Source: an uncultured Anaerolineaceae bacterium (lineage in GTDB: Bacteria; Chloroflexota; Anaerolineae; Anaerolineales; UBA4823). From it: a stretch of 64,000 bases of DNA. Numbering within the stretch: position 1 is the first letter of the stretch; each line of letters opens with the position of its first letter. Shown piece after piece: positions 6,985 through 48,663 of this stretch. Position numbers and translations under genes: made by a program. The stretch spans positions 653-64,652 of the forward strand of contig CAYLPS010000009.1 in NCBI GenBank assembly GCA_964385625.1, given 5' to 3'. The notes under the pieces were generated by a model. It saw nothing but the letters and a program-made list of their open reading frames with translations, was not told the DNA's origin and did not search any database.

Positions 6985-8187
6985 ATGATGTTAAGTCCTC
7001 AATCGCAACCGCAGAAGTTAGAAGTACTTGACACCTTGCTTGAGAAAGCTGATTTACAAGGATACCTGACCACCGGCGATATCCTGGAAGTATTCCCGTG
7101 GGATGGTGAGGATGATGAACGCTTGCTGGAGTTATTTGGCTTGCTCCATCGACAGGGTATTGAGATTATCATTGAAGAAGAAAACGAGCCCGAGCCATAC
7201 TTTTCCAGGCAGGATGCTGCCACGGTTGAGTTCAACGCCTCCATGGAAACCGATCTGCTGCCCAACCTGGAGAGCATTTCCGCAGATGACAGCGTGGGGT
7301 TATATTTGAAGGAAATGTCGCGCGTACCCCTGCTCAGCCTCGATGAAGAGGTCAGCCTGGCGCAGAGAATCGAGCAAGCCAAGGATGCCAGGTACAGGCT
7401 CAATAAATTAAATAAGAAGGGCTCATCCAGACATCGCCAGCAGCTTGAAAATACCGTCCAGGATGGCATTCTGGCGCGTGAGCACCTGATTAAGGCAAAC
7501 ACCCGCCTGGTGGTGAGCGTGGCGAAAAAATACATTGGGCGAGGTGTGGCTTTTCTAGATTTAATTCAAGAAGGCAACCTGGGCTTGATGAAGGCTGTCT
7601 CAAAATTCGAGTATCAGCGTGGTTTCCGCTTCTCCACCTATGCCACCTGGTGGATCCGGCAAACCATCACCCGCTCCATCGCCGACCAAAGCCGCACAAT
7701 CCGTATCCCGGTTCACATGACCGACCGCTTGCGCATGATGTATAAGGCAGCCCATAAGTTGGAACAAAGGAATGGGCGCCCTCCCACCCAGGATGAATTA
7801 TGCCTCGAGATGGGGGTCGGGCAGGATAAGCTGCGCTGGATGCTCGAAGTGGCGCGCATCCCCGTCTCACTGGAGAGCCCCGTTGGCGATGAGGATGATT
7901 CCGAGCTGGGCATGTTCGTGGAAGATACCATTACCCCTTCACCAGCCCAAGCCACCTATGATAATTTGCTCCGCGAGAGAGTGGACCAGGTGCTTGGCAC
8001 CCTTTCGGCCCGTGAAGCTCGCATCATCCGCCTGCGTTTTGGATTGGAAAATGGGCACCCCTATACCCTGGAGGAAGTGGGCCACAAATTCGGGCTGACC
8101 CGCGAGCGCATCCGCCAAATCGAAGGTAAAGCCTTGCGCCGGCTGCGCCATCCATATCGAGCCAGGTTGTTGCGCGATTACTTGTAA
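6985..8187 (+). CDS. RpoD/SigA-family sigma-70 factor
   Basis: DSVGLYLKEM (1.2), DLIQEGNLGL, FSTYATWWIRQ (region 2), TRERIRQIE (4.2). Confidence 0.93.
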   Translation: MMLSPQSQPQKLEVLDTLLEKADLQGYLTTGDILEVFPWDGEDDERLLELFGLLHRQGIEIIIEEENEPEPYFSRQDAATVEFNASMETDLLPNLESISADDSVGLYLKEMSRVPLLSLDEEVSLAQRIEQAKDARYRLNKLNKKGSSRHRQQLENTVQDGILAREHLIKANTRLVVSVAKKYIGRGVAFLDLIQEGNLGLMKAVSKFEYQRGFRFSTYATWWIRQTITRSIADQSRTIRIPVHMTDRLRMMYKAAHKLEQRNGRPPTQDELCLEMGVGQDKLRWMLEVARIPVSLESPVGDEDDSELGMFVEDTITPSPAQATYDNLLRERVDQVLGTLSAREARIIRLRFGLENGHPYTLEEVGHKFGLTRERIRQIEGKALRRLRHPYRARLLRDYL

Positions 8188-8227
8188 TCTCCGCCGCTTT
8201 TTAGTTTGCACTGCAGGCTAAGAAATC

Positions 8228-8256
8228 TTGACAAAATTTTCTCATCCGTTTAGACT
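8228..8256 (+). promoter_or_regulatory. Sigma-70 promoter of the metG leader
   Basis: TTGACA(8228)-17 nt-TAGACT(8251). Confidence 0.8.
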
Positions 8257-8284
8257 TGCACATTAATCTGTAAGGTGGACTGTG

Positions 8285-8380
8285 ATGACTGGGTACGCTA
8301 TGAACGCTTTTTTTATGTCTATGGCCATGATGAGCCTGGTTCAACGCGCCCGGGCAGCCACCTGTGAGCAGATTAAATAA
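8285..8380 (+). CDS. Met-rich leader peptide MTGYAMNAFFMSMAMMSLVQRARAATCEQIK (31 aa)
   Basis: TAAGGTGG RBS at 8271; 6 ATG codons in the first 16; lies between the promoter and a terminator upstream of metG. Confidence 0.75.
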   Translation: MTGYAMNAFFMSMAMMSLVQRARAATCEQIK

Positions 8381-8398
8381 TCATGGTTCAGAAAACAT

Positions 8399-8429
8399 AA
8401 AGGGCTGCCCAAACTGGCAGCCCTTTTTT
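8399..8429 (+). terminator. Intrinsic terminator (attenuator) in the metG leader
   Basis: AAAGGGCTGCC-caaact-GGCAGCCCTTTTTT; its 5' arm GGCTGCCC is complementary to GGGCAGCC at 8352-8359. Confidence 0.85.
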
Positions 8430-8478
8430 ATGCAGGTTGCTGTGAAATTTATTCAGAATAATCGGAAAAGAGGCCAAA

Positions 8479-10260
8479 ATGTCCAACAATATCCTGATCG
8501 CAATTGCCTGGCCATATGCCAACTCGGAGATCCATGTGGGCAATATCACCGGTTCTCACCTGCCCGGAGATATCGTGGCGCGCTACCACCGCCTGAAGGG
8601 TGATCGGGTGTTGATGGTCTCAGGGACCGACTCGCATGGCACGCCGGTCACACTGAAAGCCGATGCTGAGGGCCGCCCGGTTGAAGAGGTGTATCGCTTC
8701 TTCCATGAGCAGTTCCTTGAGCTATTTCAGAAAGCCGGCATCAGCTATGACCTATTTACCACCACCCACACCGAGAACCACTTCAAGGTTGCCCAATCCA
8801 TGTTCCTGGCGCTTAATGAAAATGGCTTCCTGTACACCGAGTCGCGTCCCCAGTGGTACTCGCCAGCTGCCGGGCGTTTTTTACCCGACCGCTATGTGGA
8901 GGGAACCTGCTATATTTGCGGCTACGAAGGAGCCCGCTCCGACCAGTGCGACAATTGCGGGCATGTGCTGGAACCCGAAAAACTGATCAACCCGCGCAGC
9001 AAGGAAGATGGCTCTATACCTGAACTGCGCGAAACCACCCATTTCTACCTGGACCTATCCAAGCTTCAGCCGGATGTGGCTGAATTTTTACACCAGCGCC
9101 AGGGATATTGGCGTGAGACCGTGATCGGTGAAACCCTGGGGAAAATCGAGAGCGAGGGGCTGCTTCCTCGGCCCATCACACGCGACCTGGATTGGGGCAT
9201 CCCCGTCCCGGTGGAAGGCTGGGAAGGTAAGTGCCTGTACGTGTGGTTCGAGGCTGTCATCGGCTACCTCTCCGCCAGCATCGAATGGGCAAAAATCATC
9301 GGGCGGCCGGATGCCTGGCGCGACTGGTGGACCGACTTATCGGCCAAGACGTTCTATTTCATCGGCAAGGATAACATCTTCTTCCACGCCGCCATGTGGC
9401 CAGCCCAGCTCAAGGGAGCCGGCAAGGAATTCGTGCGCATATTCTGTGAAGAGGATGGTGAGCCGCTTAACCTGCCTTATGACGTGCCAGCCAACCAATT
9501 CATGAACCTGGAAGGCCGTAAAATCTCCGGTAGCCGTAATTGGGCGGTATGGGGATTGGATTTCCTGTCACGCTATGACCCCGATGCCTTGCGCTATTAC
9601 CTCACCATCAACATGCCCGAGCTGAGAGATACTGACTGGGACTGGGATGAGTTCATCGCCCATAATAACAACGAACTGGTTGCCAACTGGGGCAACCTGG
9701 TGAATCGCGCCTTGTCATTCGCTTATAAGCATTGGGGTGGCCTGGTGCCCGACCCGGGTGAGTTGCGCCCGATCGACAAGGAGATCATCGACCAGGTGGA
9801 GGCTGGCTTTACCACTATCGGGGAGCACCTCGAAGCGGTGCATCTCAGGGCAGCGCTCACCGAGGCATTGAGACTGGCAAAATTGGGGAACAAATACCAG
9901 GATGATACCTCCCCATGGTTCGAGATCAAGACCGATAAGGCTGAGGCAGCCAAGTCGATTTTCACGGCATTGAAAGTCATTGATTCGCTCAAGGTGTTGT
10001 TCGCTCCCTTCCTGCCGTTCAGCAGCGAGCGTCTTCACACCTTCCTGGGCTACTCCCAGCCGTTATTTGGAGAGCAATATGTAGAGACCCTGCAGGATAA
10101 GCTGGGTGCTCATGATGCCCTGCGCTACCGCCCGCCTCAACCGGGTGGGTGCTGGCAGCCCTCCGATCTGAAACCCGGCCAACGCCTCCGTCAGCCTGCC
10201 CCATTGTTCAAGAAGCTCGAGCCTGCCCTGGCAGCACAGGAACGCGCCCGCCTGGGGTAA
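8479..10260 (+). CDS. metG: Methionine--tRNA ligase (no C-terminal tRNA-binding appendage)
   Basis: WPYAN..HVGN (HIGH motif), GTDSHG, two CxxC Zn knuckles, YVWFEA, GKDN, KISGS (KMSKS motif). Confidence 0.96.
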   Translation: MSNNILIAIAWPYANSEIHVGNITGSHLPGDIVARYHRLKGDRVLMVSGTDSHGTPVTLKADAEGRPVEEVYRFFHEQFLELFQKAGISYDLFTTTHTENHFKVAQSMFLALNENGFLYTESRPQWYSPAAGRFLPDRYVEGTCYICGYEGARSDQCDNCGHVLEPEKLINPRSKEDGSIPELRETTHFYLDLSKLQPDVAEFLHQRQGYWRETVIGETLGKIESEGLLPRPITRDLDWGIPVPVEGWEGKCLYVWFEAVIGYLSASIEWAKIIGRPDAWRDWWTDLSAKTFYFIGKDNIFFHAAMWPAQLKGAGKEFVRIFCEEDGEPLNLPYDVPANQFMNLEGRKISGSRNWAVWGLDFLSRYDPDALRYYLTINMPELRDTDWDWDEFIAHNNNELVANWGNLVNRALSFAYKHWGGLVPDPGELRPIDKEIIDQVEAGFTTIGEHLEAVHLRAALTEALRLAKLGNKYQDDTSPWFEIKTDKAEAAKSIFTALKVIDSLKVLFAPFLPFSSERLHTFLGYSQPLFGEQYVETLQDKLGAHDALRYRPPQPGGCWQPSDLKPGQRLRQPAPLFKKLEPALAAQERARLG

Positions 10261-10263
10261 TAA

Positions 10264-11454
10264 CTACTCGGTATCCTCGATTTCTACAACCTGTTTGAGG
10301 TTAAAACCGCGCCGCTTCAGCTCATTCACGAAAGGAATGGCTGGCACAAAACTTTCCACTCCACCGGCACCTCGCCGTGTTTGCCCGTGAGCCATCATCT
10401 CTGCCACGATTGCGGCATCCCACCCGGTGGTACGCTCCATGGCAGTGAAGCCAGTCTTTTCATCGAAGCGGTCCACCAGCTCCATGATGGCGTGCGCGCG
10501 CCGGCCAGCTTTCGTGCCGTCCGCCCTCACCCGCACCAATACAATGTCTTTGCCTTTTTCAGGATGCTGTGGAAACGTGACTTTTGGCTCATATAGTGCG
10601 TGGAACACCTGGCGCGGTATGATTTCGGTGCCATTGATGGTCAGTGGCTTTAAATCCCACAACCCAAGGTCCCAGAAGCTGCGCAGCTGCTGGCAATGCC
10701 CCGGATAGCGCAGGGTAAGGTTCTGCAGGGTACGCAGTTTACCAGCGTAGGTCCAGGGCATGGTGCTGGTGCCGCCTCCCGTCACAAAGGCTTCCAGGGT
10801 GCCAACCGAATCGGGAAATTCAATCGTTTCCAACTCGGTCATCGGTTCCACCCGGGTAATTTTCCCCTCACGCAGGAATATGGCTGGCTCAGCGTATTCA
10901 TTTGTCAACCCTGCCACGTGGAAGGTAAGCAGGTAGTTGAAAGGCGGTTGGGGATGCTGGGGAAGGCCGCCATCCCACATATAAACATCCACCGCCTCGT
11001 CCAGCAGTCCCATGGTATATACGGTCAGGGAAGTACCCATCCCCGGCACCTGCCCGCAGTCGGGTATGATGCTGATGCCTGCCTGGCGGGCCTGCTCATC
11101 AAAGGCGTGCTGCTGCCTGGCAATATCGGTGTTACCTCCCAGGTCGCACATGCAGGCTTTCACCTTAATTGCCACCCTGGTGATATCCAGGTTGTAATAG
11201 TAGGGCACTGCGCTTACGAAAGCCTGTATGCCTTCCAGCGCCCGCTCCAGGGCGTATGCATCGGTCACATCAACCTGGACAGCCTGAGCTGCTTTCCGGC
11301 CAATCAGGCTGTTCACGCGCCCGGCAGAACGTTCGGCGATGGACAGCTGTTTGTCGATCAGGATAATACGCTCTGCCTCCCCCCAGCGTGCCATGTCATA
11401 TGCGCAGGCCGTGCCCTGCCTCCCTGACCCGATGACTGCATAGCTATATTCCAT
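10264..11454 (-). CDS. Saccharopine dehydrogenase/lysine 6-dehydrogenase family protein
   Basis: GSGRQG Rossmann fold, DLGGN, DCGQVPG, GLTNEY, TLRYPGH, TAMERTTG; start at ATG 11454 with GGGAGG RBS. Confidence 0.88.
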   Translation of the reverse strand: MEYSYAVIGSGRQGTACAYDMARWGEAERIILIDKQLSIAERSAGRVNSLIGRKAAQAVQVDVTDAYALERALEGIQAFVSAVPYYYNLDITRVAIKVKACMCDLGGNTDIARQQHAFDEQARQAGISIIPDCGQVPGMGTSLTVYTMGLLDEAVDVYMWDGGLPQHPQPPFNYLLTFHVAGLTNEYAEPAIFLREGKITRVEPMTELETIEFPDSVGTLEAFVTGGGTSTMPWTYAGKLRTLQNLTLRYPGHCQQLRSFWDLGLWDLKPLTINGTEIIPRQVFHALYEPKVTFPQHPEKGKDIVLVRVRADGTKAGRRAHAIMELVDRFDEKTGFTAMERTTGWDAAIVAEMMAHGQTRRGAGGVESFVPAIPFVNELKRRGFNLKQVVEIEDTE

Positions 11455-11555
11455 ATTATTCCTCCCGTGGATGATCTGAGTCAATTATAAGGTATTTCAC
11501 TCCTCCCCGAGGCATTCGAGTGTGGTAAACTCCCTGATTGCCTGACATTCTGTAA

Positions 11556-47380: not shown

Positions 47381-48663
47381 GCCATTACCTGATTATCCTG
47401 GGTTTATTGCTCCTGTTCTGCATCGACATCTACACCATCGCATTCCGCAGCTCTTTGTTGAACTCCAGCCTGGCGCGCCTGCTTTCCCTCAGGGAAGAGA
47501 TGAAAACGCAGGTAAACCGCACCATCAGCTTGCTGCACGCCCCGCAAGAGTGGTCGGCTGCCAGCAATTTACTCCAGCTTGTAGCTCGTTTTTTAGGCGC
47601 CAGTTTGCTGGTGGCGCTGTTTTTCCCCCGAGAGATCACCGTAACTTCCATGCTGGTGCTGCTGGGCATATTACTATTAGCTGCCATTGTGGTCTTTTGG
47701 CTGGAATGGTTGGTGGAGAGGGGGGTCTCTCGCCACCCAGAAGCGTGGGCGATGCGCCTGTCCGGCTCCGTGCGCACTACTACGGTGATCCTTTCTCCCA
47801 TCCTGCTGATACCGCTGGCAATCGGCCGGCGCAAGGGCGATCAACAGGAACCGGTAAGCTCCGTCACCGAAGAAGAGCTCAAGAGCATGGTAGACGCCGG
47901 GCACGAGGGAGGTGTGCTCGAGACGGAAGAGCGACAAATGATCTACTCCATCTTTGAGCTGGGCGACACCCTGGTGCGAGAGATCATGCTGCCGCGCATC
48001 TATATCAATGCCCTCGAGATCTCCACATCCCTTTCAGATGCCGTGGATGCTTTTATCAAGTCGGGACATTCACGCCTCCCGGTTTACCAGGAATCGATCG
48101 ACAATATCCTGGGCTTGCTGTATGCCAAGGACCTACTGAAGGTATCGAATCGGGTTGAGCAGGTCGAATCACTGAACAGTCTGCTCCGTCCCGCCACTTT
48201 TGTACCCGAGGCAAAGAAGGTGGATGAGCTGCTGCAGGAAATGCAGGCCGGGCAATTCCACATGGCCATGGTCGTGGACGAGTATGGCGGCATCGCCGGC
48301 CTCGTCACCCTGGAGGATATCTTTGAAGAAATCGTGGGTGAGATCCAGGATGAGTATGACCAGAGTGAGGAAGCACCCTATACCAGGATCAACGATGGCG
48401 AATGTGTGTTCCAGGGCCGGGTGGATCTTAGGGATTTCAACGAGGTCATGGGCACCCAACTGCCTATCGAAGAGACTGATACACTGGGCGGTTTCATCTA
48501 TGAGCAAATAGGCCGTGTGCCCATTAGCGGTGAAACATTGCAGGTTGGCTATATTCAATTAATTATCGAGCAGGTCACCGGCCGGCGCATCCGCAAGGTG
48601 AGAGCCAGGAAACTGAGTGAACCGCCTCTACAGGAGCAACAAGATGAATCAACAATTAACTGA
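47377..48663 (+). CDS. CNNM/CorC-HlyC (hemolysin-family) membrane protein with CBS pair
   Basis: TM region, [36 protein letters not shown]. Confidence 0.9.

Follow-up and report, generated by a model that had tools for sequence, protein, structure and literature searches.

The methionyl-tRNA synthetase gene metG, located in the 64,000-nt stretch of Anaerolineaceae DNA analyzed here (the window), is preceded by a leader that is probably a ribosome-mediated (leader-peptide) transcription attenuator sensing the charging of Met-tRNA. The leader comprises a short ORF with its own ribosome-binding site (RBS), a cluster of Met codons, an intrinsic terminator and an antiterminator that uses one strand of the terminator; that the leader responds to Met-tRNA charging is the part that we infer. 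The core of this reading is strongly supported by the conservation of the leader, the behavior of the ORF frame and start codon, the covariation of the antiterminator, and a parallel Tyr-codon leader upstream of tyrS.

Structure of the metG Leader

The leader and metG comprise the following features.

8228–8256, + strand: leader promoter, with -35 hexamer TTGACA (8228–8233), 17-nt spacer and -10 hexamer TAGACT (8251–8256)
8263–8290, + strand: region 1, the 5′ strand of helix P1 (candidate anti-antiterminator), including the Shine-Dalgarno (SD) sequence and start codon
8271–8278, + strand: SD sequence TAAGGTGG, core AGGTGG at 8273–8278
8285–8380, + strand: leader ORF of 31 codons plus stop, ATG at 8285 and TAA at 8378–8380, peptide MTGYAMNAFFMSMAMMSLVQRARAATCEQIK
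8285, 8300, 8315, 8321, 8327 and 8330, + strand: Met codons 1, 6, 11, 13, 15 and 16
8315–8332, + strand: control codons Met11, Met13, Met15 and Met16, in the run ATG TCT ATG GCC ATG ATG
8352–8376, + strand: region 2, of which GGGCAGCC (8352–8359) is the 5′ strand of antiterminator P2 and the whole is the 3′ strand of P1
8399–8429, + strand: intrinsic terminator P3, with 5′ arm 8399–8409, loop 8410–8415, 3′ arm 8416–8426 and T-run 8424–8429
Region 3, + strand: the 5′ arm of the terminator, where GGCTGCCC (8403–8410) also pairs with region 2
8479–10260, + strand: metG, methionine--tRNA ligase of 593 aa, SD GAGG at 8470–8473

A base-by-base ruler check found the promoter, SD, ORF, region 2, terminator and metG at the coordinates given by the first-pass annotation. 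The ORF listing opens the leader frame at GTG 8282. The promoter scored 10/12 in a promoter consensus scan that returned three promoter-like sites in the 1.1 kb scanned, against 0.6 ± 0.7 in shuffled sequences, and on the + strand between the terminator and metG the scan found no promoter-like site. In 21 of 22 aligned relatives the -35 and -10 hexamers scarcely vary, and TTGACA(A)..TAnACT also precedes leaders from other families. The leader transcript is predicted to start at about 8263. A sigma-factor gene lies on the upstream side of the leader. A search for sequencing runs containing the locus listed nine of DNA and none of RNA.

The P3 hairpin has a calculated energy of -19.7 kcal/mol, and six T residues follow its G+C stem on the + strand. 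The consensus scan reports this hairpin on the - strand only; it misses the + strand hairpin because its rule runs the stem into the T-run, leaving too few tail T residues. The fold of the whole leader (-63.4 kcal/mol, z = -4.2) is far more stable than expected from shuffling, with none of 200 shuffles equally low. The product of metG scores 449.7 bits against NCBIfam TIGR00398 (cut-off 336), and metG is the sole gene of the controlled unit, as the next gene (10264–11484) is encoded on the opposite strand.

The Leader ORF in Related Genomes

The first-pass annotation had described a Met-rich upstream ORF, and such ORFs are enriched before metG across the Anaerolineales. Within the order, 62 of 147 genomes carry a small ORF with at least three internal ATG per seven codons within 300 nt upstream of metG, against 45 of 2076 upstream regions of the window's own genome, although these counts overstate the statistics because related genomes are not independent. 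ATG is the top enriched codon before metG (62 genomes), followed by GCC (15). The frequency varies among families: 23/29 in f1, 12/12 in f15, 9/11 in f12, 4/5 in f11, 5/11 in f5 and 3/11 in f7, while three or more Met codons are rare in f2 (0/9), f16 (0/11) and f17 (1/10). A clear Met run is thus absent from many genomes of the order, and several families have only two Met codons. In a second sample, consisting of Anaerolineales and Anaerolineae MAGs, the Met-rich ORF precedes metG in 54 of 80 cases. For genomes of the class that fall outside the order, the count is 6 of 60. A Met-rich ORF with a terminator after it thus stands before metG in many Anaerolineales bacteria; other leaders, designated "type B," have two Met codons, a CCGCCAGCC terminator and conserved long-range complementarity.

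Comparison of aligned relatives indicates that the leader ORF behaves as a translated frame. Of 21 other genomes in the genus, 17 have recognizable leader DNA before metG, at 68–75% identity. In the alignment of 21 relatives the start position is occupied by ATG or GTG, both the SD and the stop column are conserved, and the indels within the ORF are of 3 or 6 nt; the stretch from the start codon to the Met run varies in sequence but keeps its frame. In 41 of 43 leaders all ATGs of the cluster lie in a single reading frame; of 535 ATG clusters found genome-wide, 144 do so. The Met runs themselves differ (MSMxMM, MPMPMSM, MMMR, MVMMCMM, MAMAM), and beyond them conservation of the peptide is limited to places where the RNA pairs. 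A short R-A-W-A-A stretch just after the Met run is conserved; its codons show zero synonymous variation and overlap region 2 and an invariant CGCGCC located before region 2, which points to a constraint on the RNA or DNA rather than on the peptide. No partner strand was identified for CGCGCC.

The leader adjoins metG across many families and stays with it where the upstream neighbor differs (loci L008, L010, L018, and L020). Only the SD is conserved in the 49-nt spacer between terminator and metG in aligned relatives. The exact leader peptide is absent from the protein collection searched. The own genome contains a single copy of the leader (nhmmer E = 4e-54; covariance model 93 bits, with the runner-up at 23 bits). 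Of 151 genomes drawn from across the class, 27 gave matches to covariance model R1 at E ≤ 0.01; matches before metG were confined to G000 and three genomes from within the order, and none of the 16 other matches checked adjoins a MetG match. The 12 of these other matches that were listed are ordinary terminators or coding sequence. Extra partial matches in G054 and G068 were likewise set aside as terminators, the one following an IF1-like gene and the other preceding an ilvD-like gene.

Competing Antiterminator and Terminator Hairpins

Region 2 (GGGCAGCC, 8352–8359) is the exact complement of GGCTGCCC (8403–8410), and this complementarity, pointed out in the first-pass annotation, proved to be both conserved and covarying in 54 leaders from five families. 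In this set P2 is paired in 89.1% of 478 cells, against 25–48% in slid controls, with compensatory change at five of nine pairs (22 cells). None of 500 shuffles reached the compensatory pair or cell counts or the covariation score, and three of 500 reached the percentage paired. P3 is paired in 98.7% of cells, also with compensatory change at five of nine pairs, so that the covariation sought by the annotation is present in both the antiterminator and the terminator arms. Among members of the genus P2 scarcely varies and shows one compensatory change; three members of the genus (G007, G014, and G017) have an A-C mismatch.

The pairing potential of the terminator arm was also compared with that of other hairpins, scored as the ratio to a perfect duplex because arm lengths differ and raw energy is uninformative. 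The duplex formed by the 5′ arm with the 70 nt upstream reaches 0.81 of the perfect duplex, while the 99th percentile of 2121 terminator-like hairpins in the same genome is 0.72. The geometry is conserved over the 54 leaders, with median spacings of 19 nt between the last Met codon and region 2, 18 nt between region 2 and the stop codon, and 23 nt between the stop codon and the terminator arm; the last two distances are 18 and 22 nt in the leader studied here. RNAalifold applied to 21 leaders recovered only the terminator and a 3-bp helix, and P1 and P2 were for this reason tested as named structures. As far as sequence comparison goes, the leader is beyond chance, and the comparative results settle this question.

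A Candidate Anti-Antiterminator Helix at the Leader Ribosome-Binding Site

In predicted folds, the conserved candidate for the default helix is P1, in which the leader SD/start region pairs with region 2 and the bases that follow it. The minimum free energy (MFE) structure contains P1 both for the complete leader and for nascent transcripts, and in 17 of 21 relatives the SD/start is paired with the region-2 window when the pre-terminator transcript is in its MFE structure. The duplex between the RBS and region 2 is better than 95% of shuffles in 14 of 21 relatives (mean z of -3.1). P1 positions are paired in 78.7% of cells, against 16–47% in slid controls, but the covariation of this helix is not above that of shuffles, 112 of 500 of which exceeded or matched it. 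Region 1 (8263–8290) lies 25–50 nt upstream of the Met cluster, unlike the classical rule that places the control codons in region 1. In thermodynamic folding with only the stalled ribosome masked, P1 is still the MFE structure, and P2 forms only when the RBS is masked as well.

The Met-codon attenuator proposed in the first-pass annotation is strongly supported with respect to the leader peptide and the competing antiterminator and terminator, while two auxiliary pairings that it had offered as a possible default for failed initiation are not. Neither is conserved in 21 close relatives: 8335–8339/8350–8354 is paired in 55% of cells (slid control up to 69.5%) and 8325–8331/8380–8386 in 62% (slid control up to 54%).

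Known RNA Families and the tyrS Leader

Matches to known T-box or S-adenosylmethionine (SAM) riboswitch families, which could have accounted for the terminator, were sought with Rfam. At E up to 10, ten matches were obtained in 7900–8800, none of them to T-box or SAM models, and those over the leader cover the terminator only. One of these candidates, Phe_leader (RF01859), was rejected, since it scores 28.0 bits against a gathering score of 55 and only the terminator aligns, with 71 model positions skipped. At the gathering score the whole window yields two tRNAs (Leu and Gln) and no SAM riboswitch. T-boxes (RF00230) are found elsewhere in the same genome, with eight matches, six of which have pheS, ileS, valS, thrS, serS and leuS as downstream ORFs; therefore, the organism uses T-boxes, but not for metG. 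No T-box or other relevant RNA match was found in the metG upstream regions of 20 loci from other orders. A "SAAKGNMG" sequence recurring before metG in other orders was set aside, since at least some of it belongs to the 3′ end of a conserved gene lying upstream.

In the same genome, a leader with Tyr codons, MRNSGYGYYTST, precedes tyrS and has a terminator as well as alternative hairpins. This leader ORF is leaderless. Among the relatives, it contains at least three Tyr codons per seven in 20 of 30 cases and at least two in 27 of 30. An own-genome scan for cognate-codon leaders gave 50 noisy candidates, of which those of metG and tyrS looked convincing.

Proposed Mechanism of metG Attenuation

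Transcription would begin at the conserved promoter, at about 8263, and a ribosome would load on the leader RBS and translate behind the RNA polymerase. Three helices would then compete: P1 (8263–8290/8352–8376), P2 (8352–8359/8403–8410) and P3 (8399–8426 plus the T-run). When charged elongator Met-tRNA is plentiful, the ribosome would reach the stop codon at 8378; P2 could not close because the footprint of the ribosome at the stop codon fills the spacer, 18 nt before and 22 nt after, and P3 would form, ending transcription before metG. When Met-tRNA is scarce, the ribosome would stall at the ATG cluster (8315–8332), leaving free region 2, located 19 nt further on, which would pair with region 3 upon its emergence; no terminator would form and metG would be transcribed. 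If no ribosome is loaded, P1 would capture region 2, the terminator would form and the RBS would be sequestered.

During a stall P1 would have to be blocked, most likely by another ribosome that waits or initiates at the RBS about 10 codons behind. A leader that needs fMet-tRNA could shut metG off under a severe shortage of MetRS, and such a shut-off looks maladaptive unless basal read-through suffices. A wider version of the mechanism is possible, although we hold it only tentatively: in the Anaerolineales, cognate-codon leaders may replace T-boxes for metG, tyrS and perhaps further aminoacyl-tRNA synthetase genes, with the RBS of the metG leader serving as the anti-antiterminator strand and the switch having two inputs and depending on a ribosome queue. 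Antitermination would then need the lead ribosome stalled on the Met codons together with a second one held on the RBS and, as two ribosome events are needed, the leader would read the charging of elongator and initiator Met-tRNA together.

Alternative Explanations

The coupling of the ORF to the terminator could be real and the signal other than Met-tRNA charging, namely arrest on the Met-rich peptide caused by a small molecule (methionine or SAM) or a report of translation capacity or initiation rate. The structural evidence is silent on what slows the ribosome, the R-A-W-A-A residues after the Met run could be taken for an arrest motif, and the initiation rate, as RBS occupancy, would be an input in any case because region 1 is the RBS. 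We nevertheless consider a different signal unlikely, given that what is conserved in the leader is the density of Met codons and not a peptide motif, that R-A-W-A-A itself points to a constraint on RNA or DNA, and that the Tyr codons before tyrS in the same genome indicate a cognate-codon logic. A sensor made of RNA only, with an incidental ORF, would be a riboswitch that has escaped recognition, a leader that binds tRNA and reads AUG triplets, or a protein site, flipping the same antiterminator and terminator. P2 and P3 are compatible with any sensor, the leader folds far below its shuffles (z = -4.2) and the invariant CGCGCC lacks an identified partner, all of which would suit such a device. 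It is nonetheless quite improbable: the frame, the start (ATG/GTG), the SD and the stop are kept despite the variable sequence, 41 of 43 leaders have their ATGs in a single frame, RNAalifold gave no conserved structure apart from the terminator, and beyond the terminator the leader matches no Rfam family at E = 10, though T-boxes were found elsewhere.

The unit could also be an independent small gene for a Met-rich micro-protein or a small RNA, situated between the sigma-factor gene and metG, with metG expressed from a promoter of its own. It does possess its own strong promoter and strong terminator, and A+T-rich hexamers noticed by eye in the 49-nt spacer could be a weak promoter; however, conservation in the spacer is limited to the SD and no promoter-like site was scored there. 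The element stays directly before metG across families and changed neighbors, its peptide is not conserved past the Met run and has no exact counterpart in the collection searched, and a covarying antiterminator overlapping the terminator would be without purpose in a stand-alone gene. This makes an unrelated small gene very improbable, and attenuation by Met-tRNA charging is the reading carried forward below.

Comparison with Known Attenuators

Leader-peptide attenuation is a textbook mechanism. In the pheST (pheM leader), trp, his, leu and thr attenuators of E. coli, a short leader with a run of cognate codons is followed by an antiterminator and a terminator hairpin that exclude each other, and in pheST the controlled product is an aminoacyl-tRNA synthetase, giving feedback by the charging of its own tRNA. 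The metG leader shares with all of them a translated leader, cognate codons and competing hairpins, and with pheST a synthetase as the target. It differs from them in its control codons (Met), target (metG) and host (Chloroflexota, Anaerolineales), and in that its candidate region 1 is the leader RBS, whereas in classical attenuators it is the control-codon/stop region. A further difference from pheST is that the enzyme under control also supplies the charged initiator tRNA with which translation of the leader begins. The leader has no sequence relationship to Phe_leader (RF01859), the sub-threshold match (28 bits against 55) being to the terminator only. Like the metG leader, T-boxes (RF00230) are located before aminoacyl-tRNA synthetase genes, report tRNA charging and act through a choice between antiterminator and terminator, but they bind uncharged tRNA directly, without translation, and the metG leader has no T-box match.

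In Streptomyces, leader peptides are described before trpS, leuS and thrS, as predicted or transcriptome-supported attenuators, along with a "metL" leader before metNIQ (PMC1262725; PMC8079986). The metL peptide of S. lividans, MSTTSDRTPATEATTTPGARCMCRRMCAF, contains two internal Met codons, and a methionine dependence was proposed for it, while the authors regarded its termination as unclear, a typical Rho-independent terminator being missing (same sources). These cases resemble the metG leader as leader-peptide attenuators of aminoacyl-tRNA synthetase genes outside the Proteobacteria. Compared with metL, which precedes a Met importer, the metG leader has a different target, holds four to five Met codons in a cluster, possesses a canonical terminator and an antiterminator that covaries, and is widely conserved. 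Elsewhere, hisS paralogues of bacilli are described as preceded by a leader with His codons (PMC2965389), and mycobacteria as having poly-Cys uORFs, which are leaderless (bioRxiv 10.1101/834739). Both parallel the present case, in that sensors are swapped before one gene class and cognate-codon uORFs occur outside the classical operons, and the poly-Cys uORFs share the leaderless character of the tyrS leader. They concern other amino acids and genes, and the parts of these sources used here mention neither metG nor Met codons. A published Met-codon attenuator of metG was not found in the full-text literature searched; the nearest case in that literature is metL before metNIQ in S. lividans.

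Implications for Methionyl-tRNA Synthetase Control in Anaerolineales

Attenuation of metG by Met codons poses a conceptual difficulty, since translation of the leader begins with a tRNA that is charged by the very enzyme under control. With an example from nature that is widely conserved, the way in which a cell separates "initiation failed" from "elongation stalled" can be tested directly. The amino acids of established attenuators known to us are His, Trp, Leu, Thr, Phe, Ile/Val and Cys, and we know of no established Met member; to our knowledge, the regulation of metG in bacteria is also poorly understood beyond T-box organisms. For annotation, the leader is a recognizable element that has gone unannotated, its peptide being uncalled in the protein collection searched and no Rfam family existing for it. 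The metG leader would extend leader-peptide control to Chloroflexota, and together with the tyrS leader it suggests that one genome divides its aminoacyl-tRNA synthetase genes between T-boxes and leader peptides. Most likely, to judge from the sequence evidence, these bacteria make more MetRS when charged methionine tRNA runs low.

Organization of the metG Leader

The interval 8187-8479 is intergenic, with a gene for an RpoD-type sigma factor on one side and metG on the other, and contains the elements listed below.

Features of the metG leader and its flanking genes (window coordinates)
6985-8187: RpoD-type sigma-factor gene, named by NCBIfam
8228-8256: leader promoter, TTGACA (8228-8233), 17-nt spacer, TAGACT (8251-8256), consensus score 10/12
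8271-8278: leader SD, TAAGGTGG, from base-by-base reading
8285-8380: leader ORF of 31 codons, ATG at 8285, stop TAA at 8378-8380, peptide MTGYAMNAFFMSMAMMSLVQRARAATCEQIK
8285, 8300, 8315, 8321, 8327, 8330: leader Met codons
8352-8359: region 2, GGGCAGCC
8399-8429: terminator hairpin, stem 8399-8409/8416-8426, T-run 8424-8429, -19.7 kcal/mol
8479-10260: metG, NCBIfam TIGR00398, 449.7 bits vs. a cut-off of 336

The first-pass annotation had proposed a Met-codon attenuator here, and base-by-base reading of the window confirmed the placement of all its leader elements, including the exact complementarity of GGGCAGCC (8352-8359) to GGCTGCCC (8403-8410) in the 5' arm of the terminator (region 3). 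The terminator ends 49 nt before metG, which has its own SD. The next downstream gene lies on the opposite strand, making metG the sole gene behind the terminator. A consensus scan reports the hairpin on the minus strand only, because its rule extends the stem into the T-run; on the plus strand six T follow the G+C stem. The hairpin (8399-8426) is nearly symmetrical, with an A-run before it and a T-run after it, and could also end antisense transcription arriving from metG. The leader is present in a single copy in its own genome (nhmmer E = 4e-54; covariance model 93 bits, runner-up 23 bits).

Distribution of Met-Rich ORFs Upstream of metG

The host is an uncultured member of Anaerolineales, and its nearest MetG loci among named records belong to Anaerolineales, Anaerolineaceae and Anaerolineae MAGs. 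MetG was detected in every one of 41 close relatives, and an order-wide sample yielded it in 146 of 151 genomes. The 450 nt located 5' of metG were gathered from 150 genomes, and an ORF test was applied that required 8-90 codons and at least three internal ATG per 7-codon window, within 300 nt before metG. Met-rich small ORFs in orthologous leaders, which the first-pass annotation had suggested looking for, were found in 62 of 147 genomes of the order vs. 45 of 2076 control regions, taken from upstream of long ORFs in the genome that carries the window. All statistics presented here rest on related genomes, and these counts show breadth and are not independent trials. When the test was repeated for all sense codons, ATG (62) was followed by GCC (15).

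At the level of families of the order, ORFs with at least three Met codons are concentrated in f1 (23/29), f15 (12/12), f12 (9/11), f11 (4/5), f5 (5/11), and f7 (3/11), and are essentially absent in f2 (0/9), f16 (0/11), and f17 (1/10). In f4, f6, f8, f9, f10, and f18 the usual number of Met codons is two, arranged as a recurrent M-x-M-R motif. In a second sample, comprising the 80 best MetG loci of a named genome collection, 54 passed the ORF test; most carry a terminator 25-140 nt upstream of metG. Outside the order but within the class, 6 of 60 loci passed, and similar leaders with terminators occur in six further families.

Evidence for Translation of the Leader ORF

The pattern of sequence variation suggests that the leader ORF behaves as a reading frame, not as an RNA motif. 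Where at least four ATG triplets, whatever their frames, fall within 24 nt of a leader, a single frame holds them all in 41 of 43 leaders, vs. 144 of 535 such clusters across the window's own genome. An alignment of 21 sequences from close relatives revealed that the SD is kept, that the start column holds either ATG or GTG, that length differences between the start and the Met run are all 3 or 6 nt, and that the stop falls in a single column. The peptide is unconserved outside the Met run (variants MSMxMM, MPMPMSM, MVMMCMM, and MMMR), except at codons overlapping RNA pairing. An exact look-up did not find it among the gene calls represented in the protein collection.

Alignments of the leaders (A1, A2) also contain a CGCG(C/T)C column (8345-8350 in the window), 1 nt before region 2 and 3 nt before the GGCAGCC core of that region; the column is nearly invariant in nucleotides across families, without synonymous variation. 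No conserved pairing partner was found for it in these alignments, and it might be a pause signal.

Alternative Helices

Pairing was assessed in a MAFFT alignment, not fitted to any structure, that spans the Met cluster through the T-run of 54 leaders. These comprise every member of f1, f9, f11, f12, and f15 in which at least two Met codons are clustered and a terminator lies within 160 nt; 12 of 66 were excluded, seven because no Met run was present (the upstream sequence being truncated in two of these) and five because no terminator was detected. Pairing of the terminator (P3) reaches 98.7%, and five of its nine pairs show compensatory changes. The antiterminator (P2), formed by regions 2 and 3, is 89.1% paired over 478 cells vs. 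25-48% in slid controls, and likewise has compensatory changes at five of nine pairs (22 cells), the kind of covariation that the first-pass annotation had suggested looking for. The compensatory pairs, compensatory cells and covariation score of P2 were each reached by 0 of 500 shuffles, and its percentage paired by 3 of 500. At its third pair, 21 leaders have G-C, 20 have G-U and 12 have A-U, and A stands in region 2 only opposite U in the arm. Within the genus alone P2 is nearly invariant (93.7% paired, one compensatory change), and three genus members have an A-C mismatch. Two further pairings, offered by the same annotation as a possible default for failed initiation, proved not to be conserved: 8335-8339/8350-8354 is 55% paired (slid control up to 69.5%) and 8325-8331/8380-8386 is 62% paired (slid control up to 54%).

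A different partner for region 2 is the SD/start region (region 1, 8263-8290), which can pair with region 2 and the bases following it (8352-8376) as a putative anti-antiterminator, P1. This pairing dominates the minimum free energy (MFE) structure of the full leader, is found for 17 of 21 relatives in that of the pre-terminator transcript, and is better than 95% of shuffles in 14 of 21 (mean z = -3.1). It is 78.7% paired vs. 16-47% when slid, while its covariation lies within the shuffle range (112/500), partly because lineages differ by one base in the register of the pairing. On these alignments P1 is best described as conserved complementarity, not a proven helix.

The fold of the leader has an energy of -63.4 kcal/mol (z = -4.2), a value as low as none of 200 shuffles gave. 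Relative to a perfect duplex, the best pairing of the terminator 5' arm with the 70 nt upstream scores 0.81, vs. a 99th percentile of 0.72 for 2121 terminator-like hairpins of the window's own genome. The leader exceeds chance, and the comparative evidence is decisive.

Comparison with Known Regulatory RNAs

A T-box or SAM riboswitch, which the first-pass annotation had wanted excluded with Rfam, would offer another explanation of the terminator. The leader had no T-box, SAM or other Rfam match at E up to 10; the best-scoring model, Phe_leader, was rejected (28 bits vs. a threshold of 55, the terminator alone being aligned). T-boxes do occur in the same genome, where eight matches were found (loci L171-L178), one above the gathering score and seven below (E 6e-25 to 1e-7). 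The ORFs 3' of six of them are pheS, ileS, valS, thrS, serS, and leuS according to NCBIfam. The genome thus splits its aminoacyl-tRNA synthetase genes between T-boxes and leader peptides.

Other Leaders

A generic scan of the window's own genome uncovered a leader upstream of tyrS (NCBIfam TIGR00234, 340.6 bits), outside the window on contig G000:C5 at ~47980-48125; the locus, extending to ~49366, corresponds to ~280-1667 of extract L356. A TATAAT box is followed after 6 nt by an ATG opening MRNSGYGYYTST, with three Tyr codons and apparently leaderless, and then by overlapping hairpins and a terminator 56 nt upstream of tyrS. Of 30 relatives, 20 have at least three Tyr codons in seven in the corresponding small ORF and 27 have at least two, and the TATAAT-ATG spacing and the hairpins are kept. 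This leader is a candidate Tyr-codon attenuator. Cognate-codon logic predicts Met codons in a metG leader and Tyr codons in a tyrS leader, as seen, and mainly for this reason tRNA charging is ranked as the most likely signal.

In another family of the order, locus L214 (G068:C1 ~4051500-4051900, minus strand) contains a small ORF, MNPLLFALSLIIVVLAVLIIKDLVSVRMAMVRVRK, rich in Leu, Ile, and Val and followed by a terminator and a gene resembling, by eye, ilvD; it is a possible branched-chain leader peptide. A second type of metG leader (type B) has, directly following two Met codons, ATG-NNN-ATG-CGY-NGC-CTGCCG, and a complementary CGGCAG(C) immediately 5' of a CCGCCAGCC/GGCTGGCGG terminator; variants such as GCCGTGG with CCACGGC appear to be compensatory. 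It was seen in f4, f5, f6, f8, f10, f14, f18, and other orders (e.g., L113, L159, L104, L127, L225, and L221). In other orders of the class, GGCAGCCAAGGGNAAYATGGGGGC....GCCCCC, read SAAKGNMG, recurs upstream of metG (L219, L264, L250, L241, L252, L269, and L248). In some genomes the motif forms the 3' end of a conserved gene lying upstream, and in others it lies in a short frame; these regions had no Rfam match.

Proposed Mechanism

Median spacings in the 54 leaders place region 2 19 nt beyond the last Met codon, the stop 18 nt beyond region 2 and the terminator arm 23 nt beyond the stop (19, 18, and 22 nt in the window). A bacterial ribosome covers about 12-15 nt either side of its P site. 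With these spacings, a ribosome with a Met codon in the A site would end just short of region 2, and one at the stop codon would occupy the spacer between regions 2 and 3. When Met-tRNA is ample, the ribosome would trail the polymerase to the stop, blocking P2, so that P3 forms and transcription terminates. When elongator Met-tRNA is scarce, a stall at 8315-8332 would leave region 2 free to capture region 3 before the terminator 3' arm (region 4) is synthesized, and metG would be transcribed. Without a ribosome, region 2 would be taken by P1 and the terminator would form.

Constrained folds reproduce the ample-Met-tRNA and no-ribosome states. With the stalled ribosome alone masked, P1 remains the best structure, and P2 appears only if the RBS is masked too, which calls for either a steric or kinetic bar to P1 around the stalled ribosome or a second ribosome on the RBS. 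The Met cluster begins at about codon 8-13 in most leaders, approximately one ribosome length from the start codon, an arrangement that may fit a ribosome queue.

The proposed mechanism is of the textbook trp/his/pheST attenuator class, in which an aminoacyl-tRNA synthetase leader peptide is known at pheST of E. coli, and the metG leader is filed under this class. Leader peptides are also known or predicted before trpS and leuS in Streptomyces (PMC1262725), before trpS, leuS, and thrS in S. lividans (PMC8079986) and before hisS paralogues in bacilli (PMC2965389). The S. lividans paper also proposes "metL," before metNIQ, as a methionine-dependent leader; according to its authors termination is unclear, a typical Rho-independent terminator being missing (PMC8079986). 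Full-text searching of the literature found neither a Met-codon attenuator of metG nor leader-peptide attenuation in Anaerolineae. Two features distinguish the metG leader: region 1 would be the RBS, and the enzyme under control, MetRS, also charges the initiator tRNA with which translation of the leader begins. A second ribosome on the RBS would matter because it would need fMet-tRNA, another product of MetRS.
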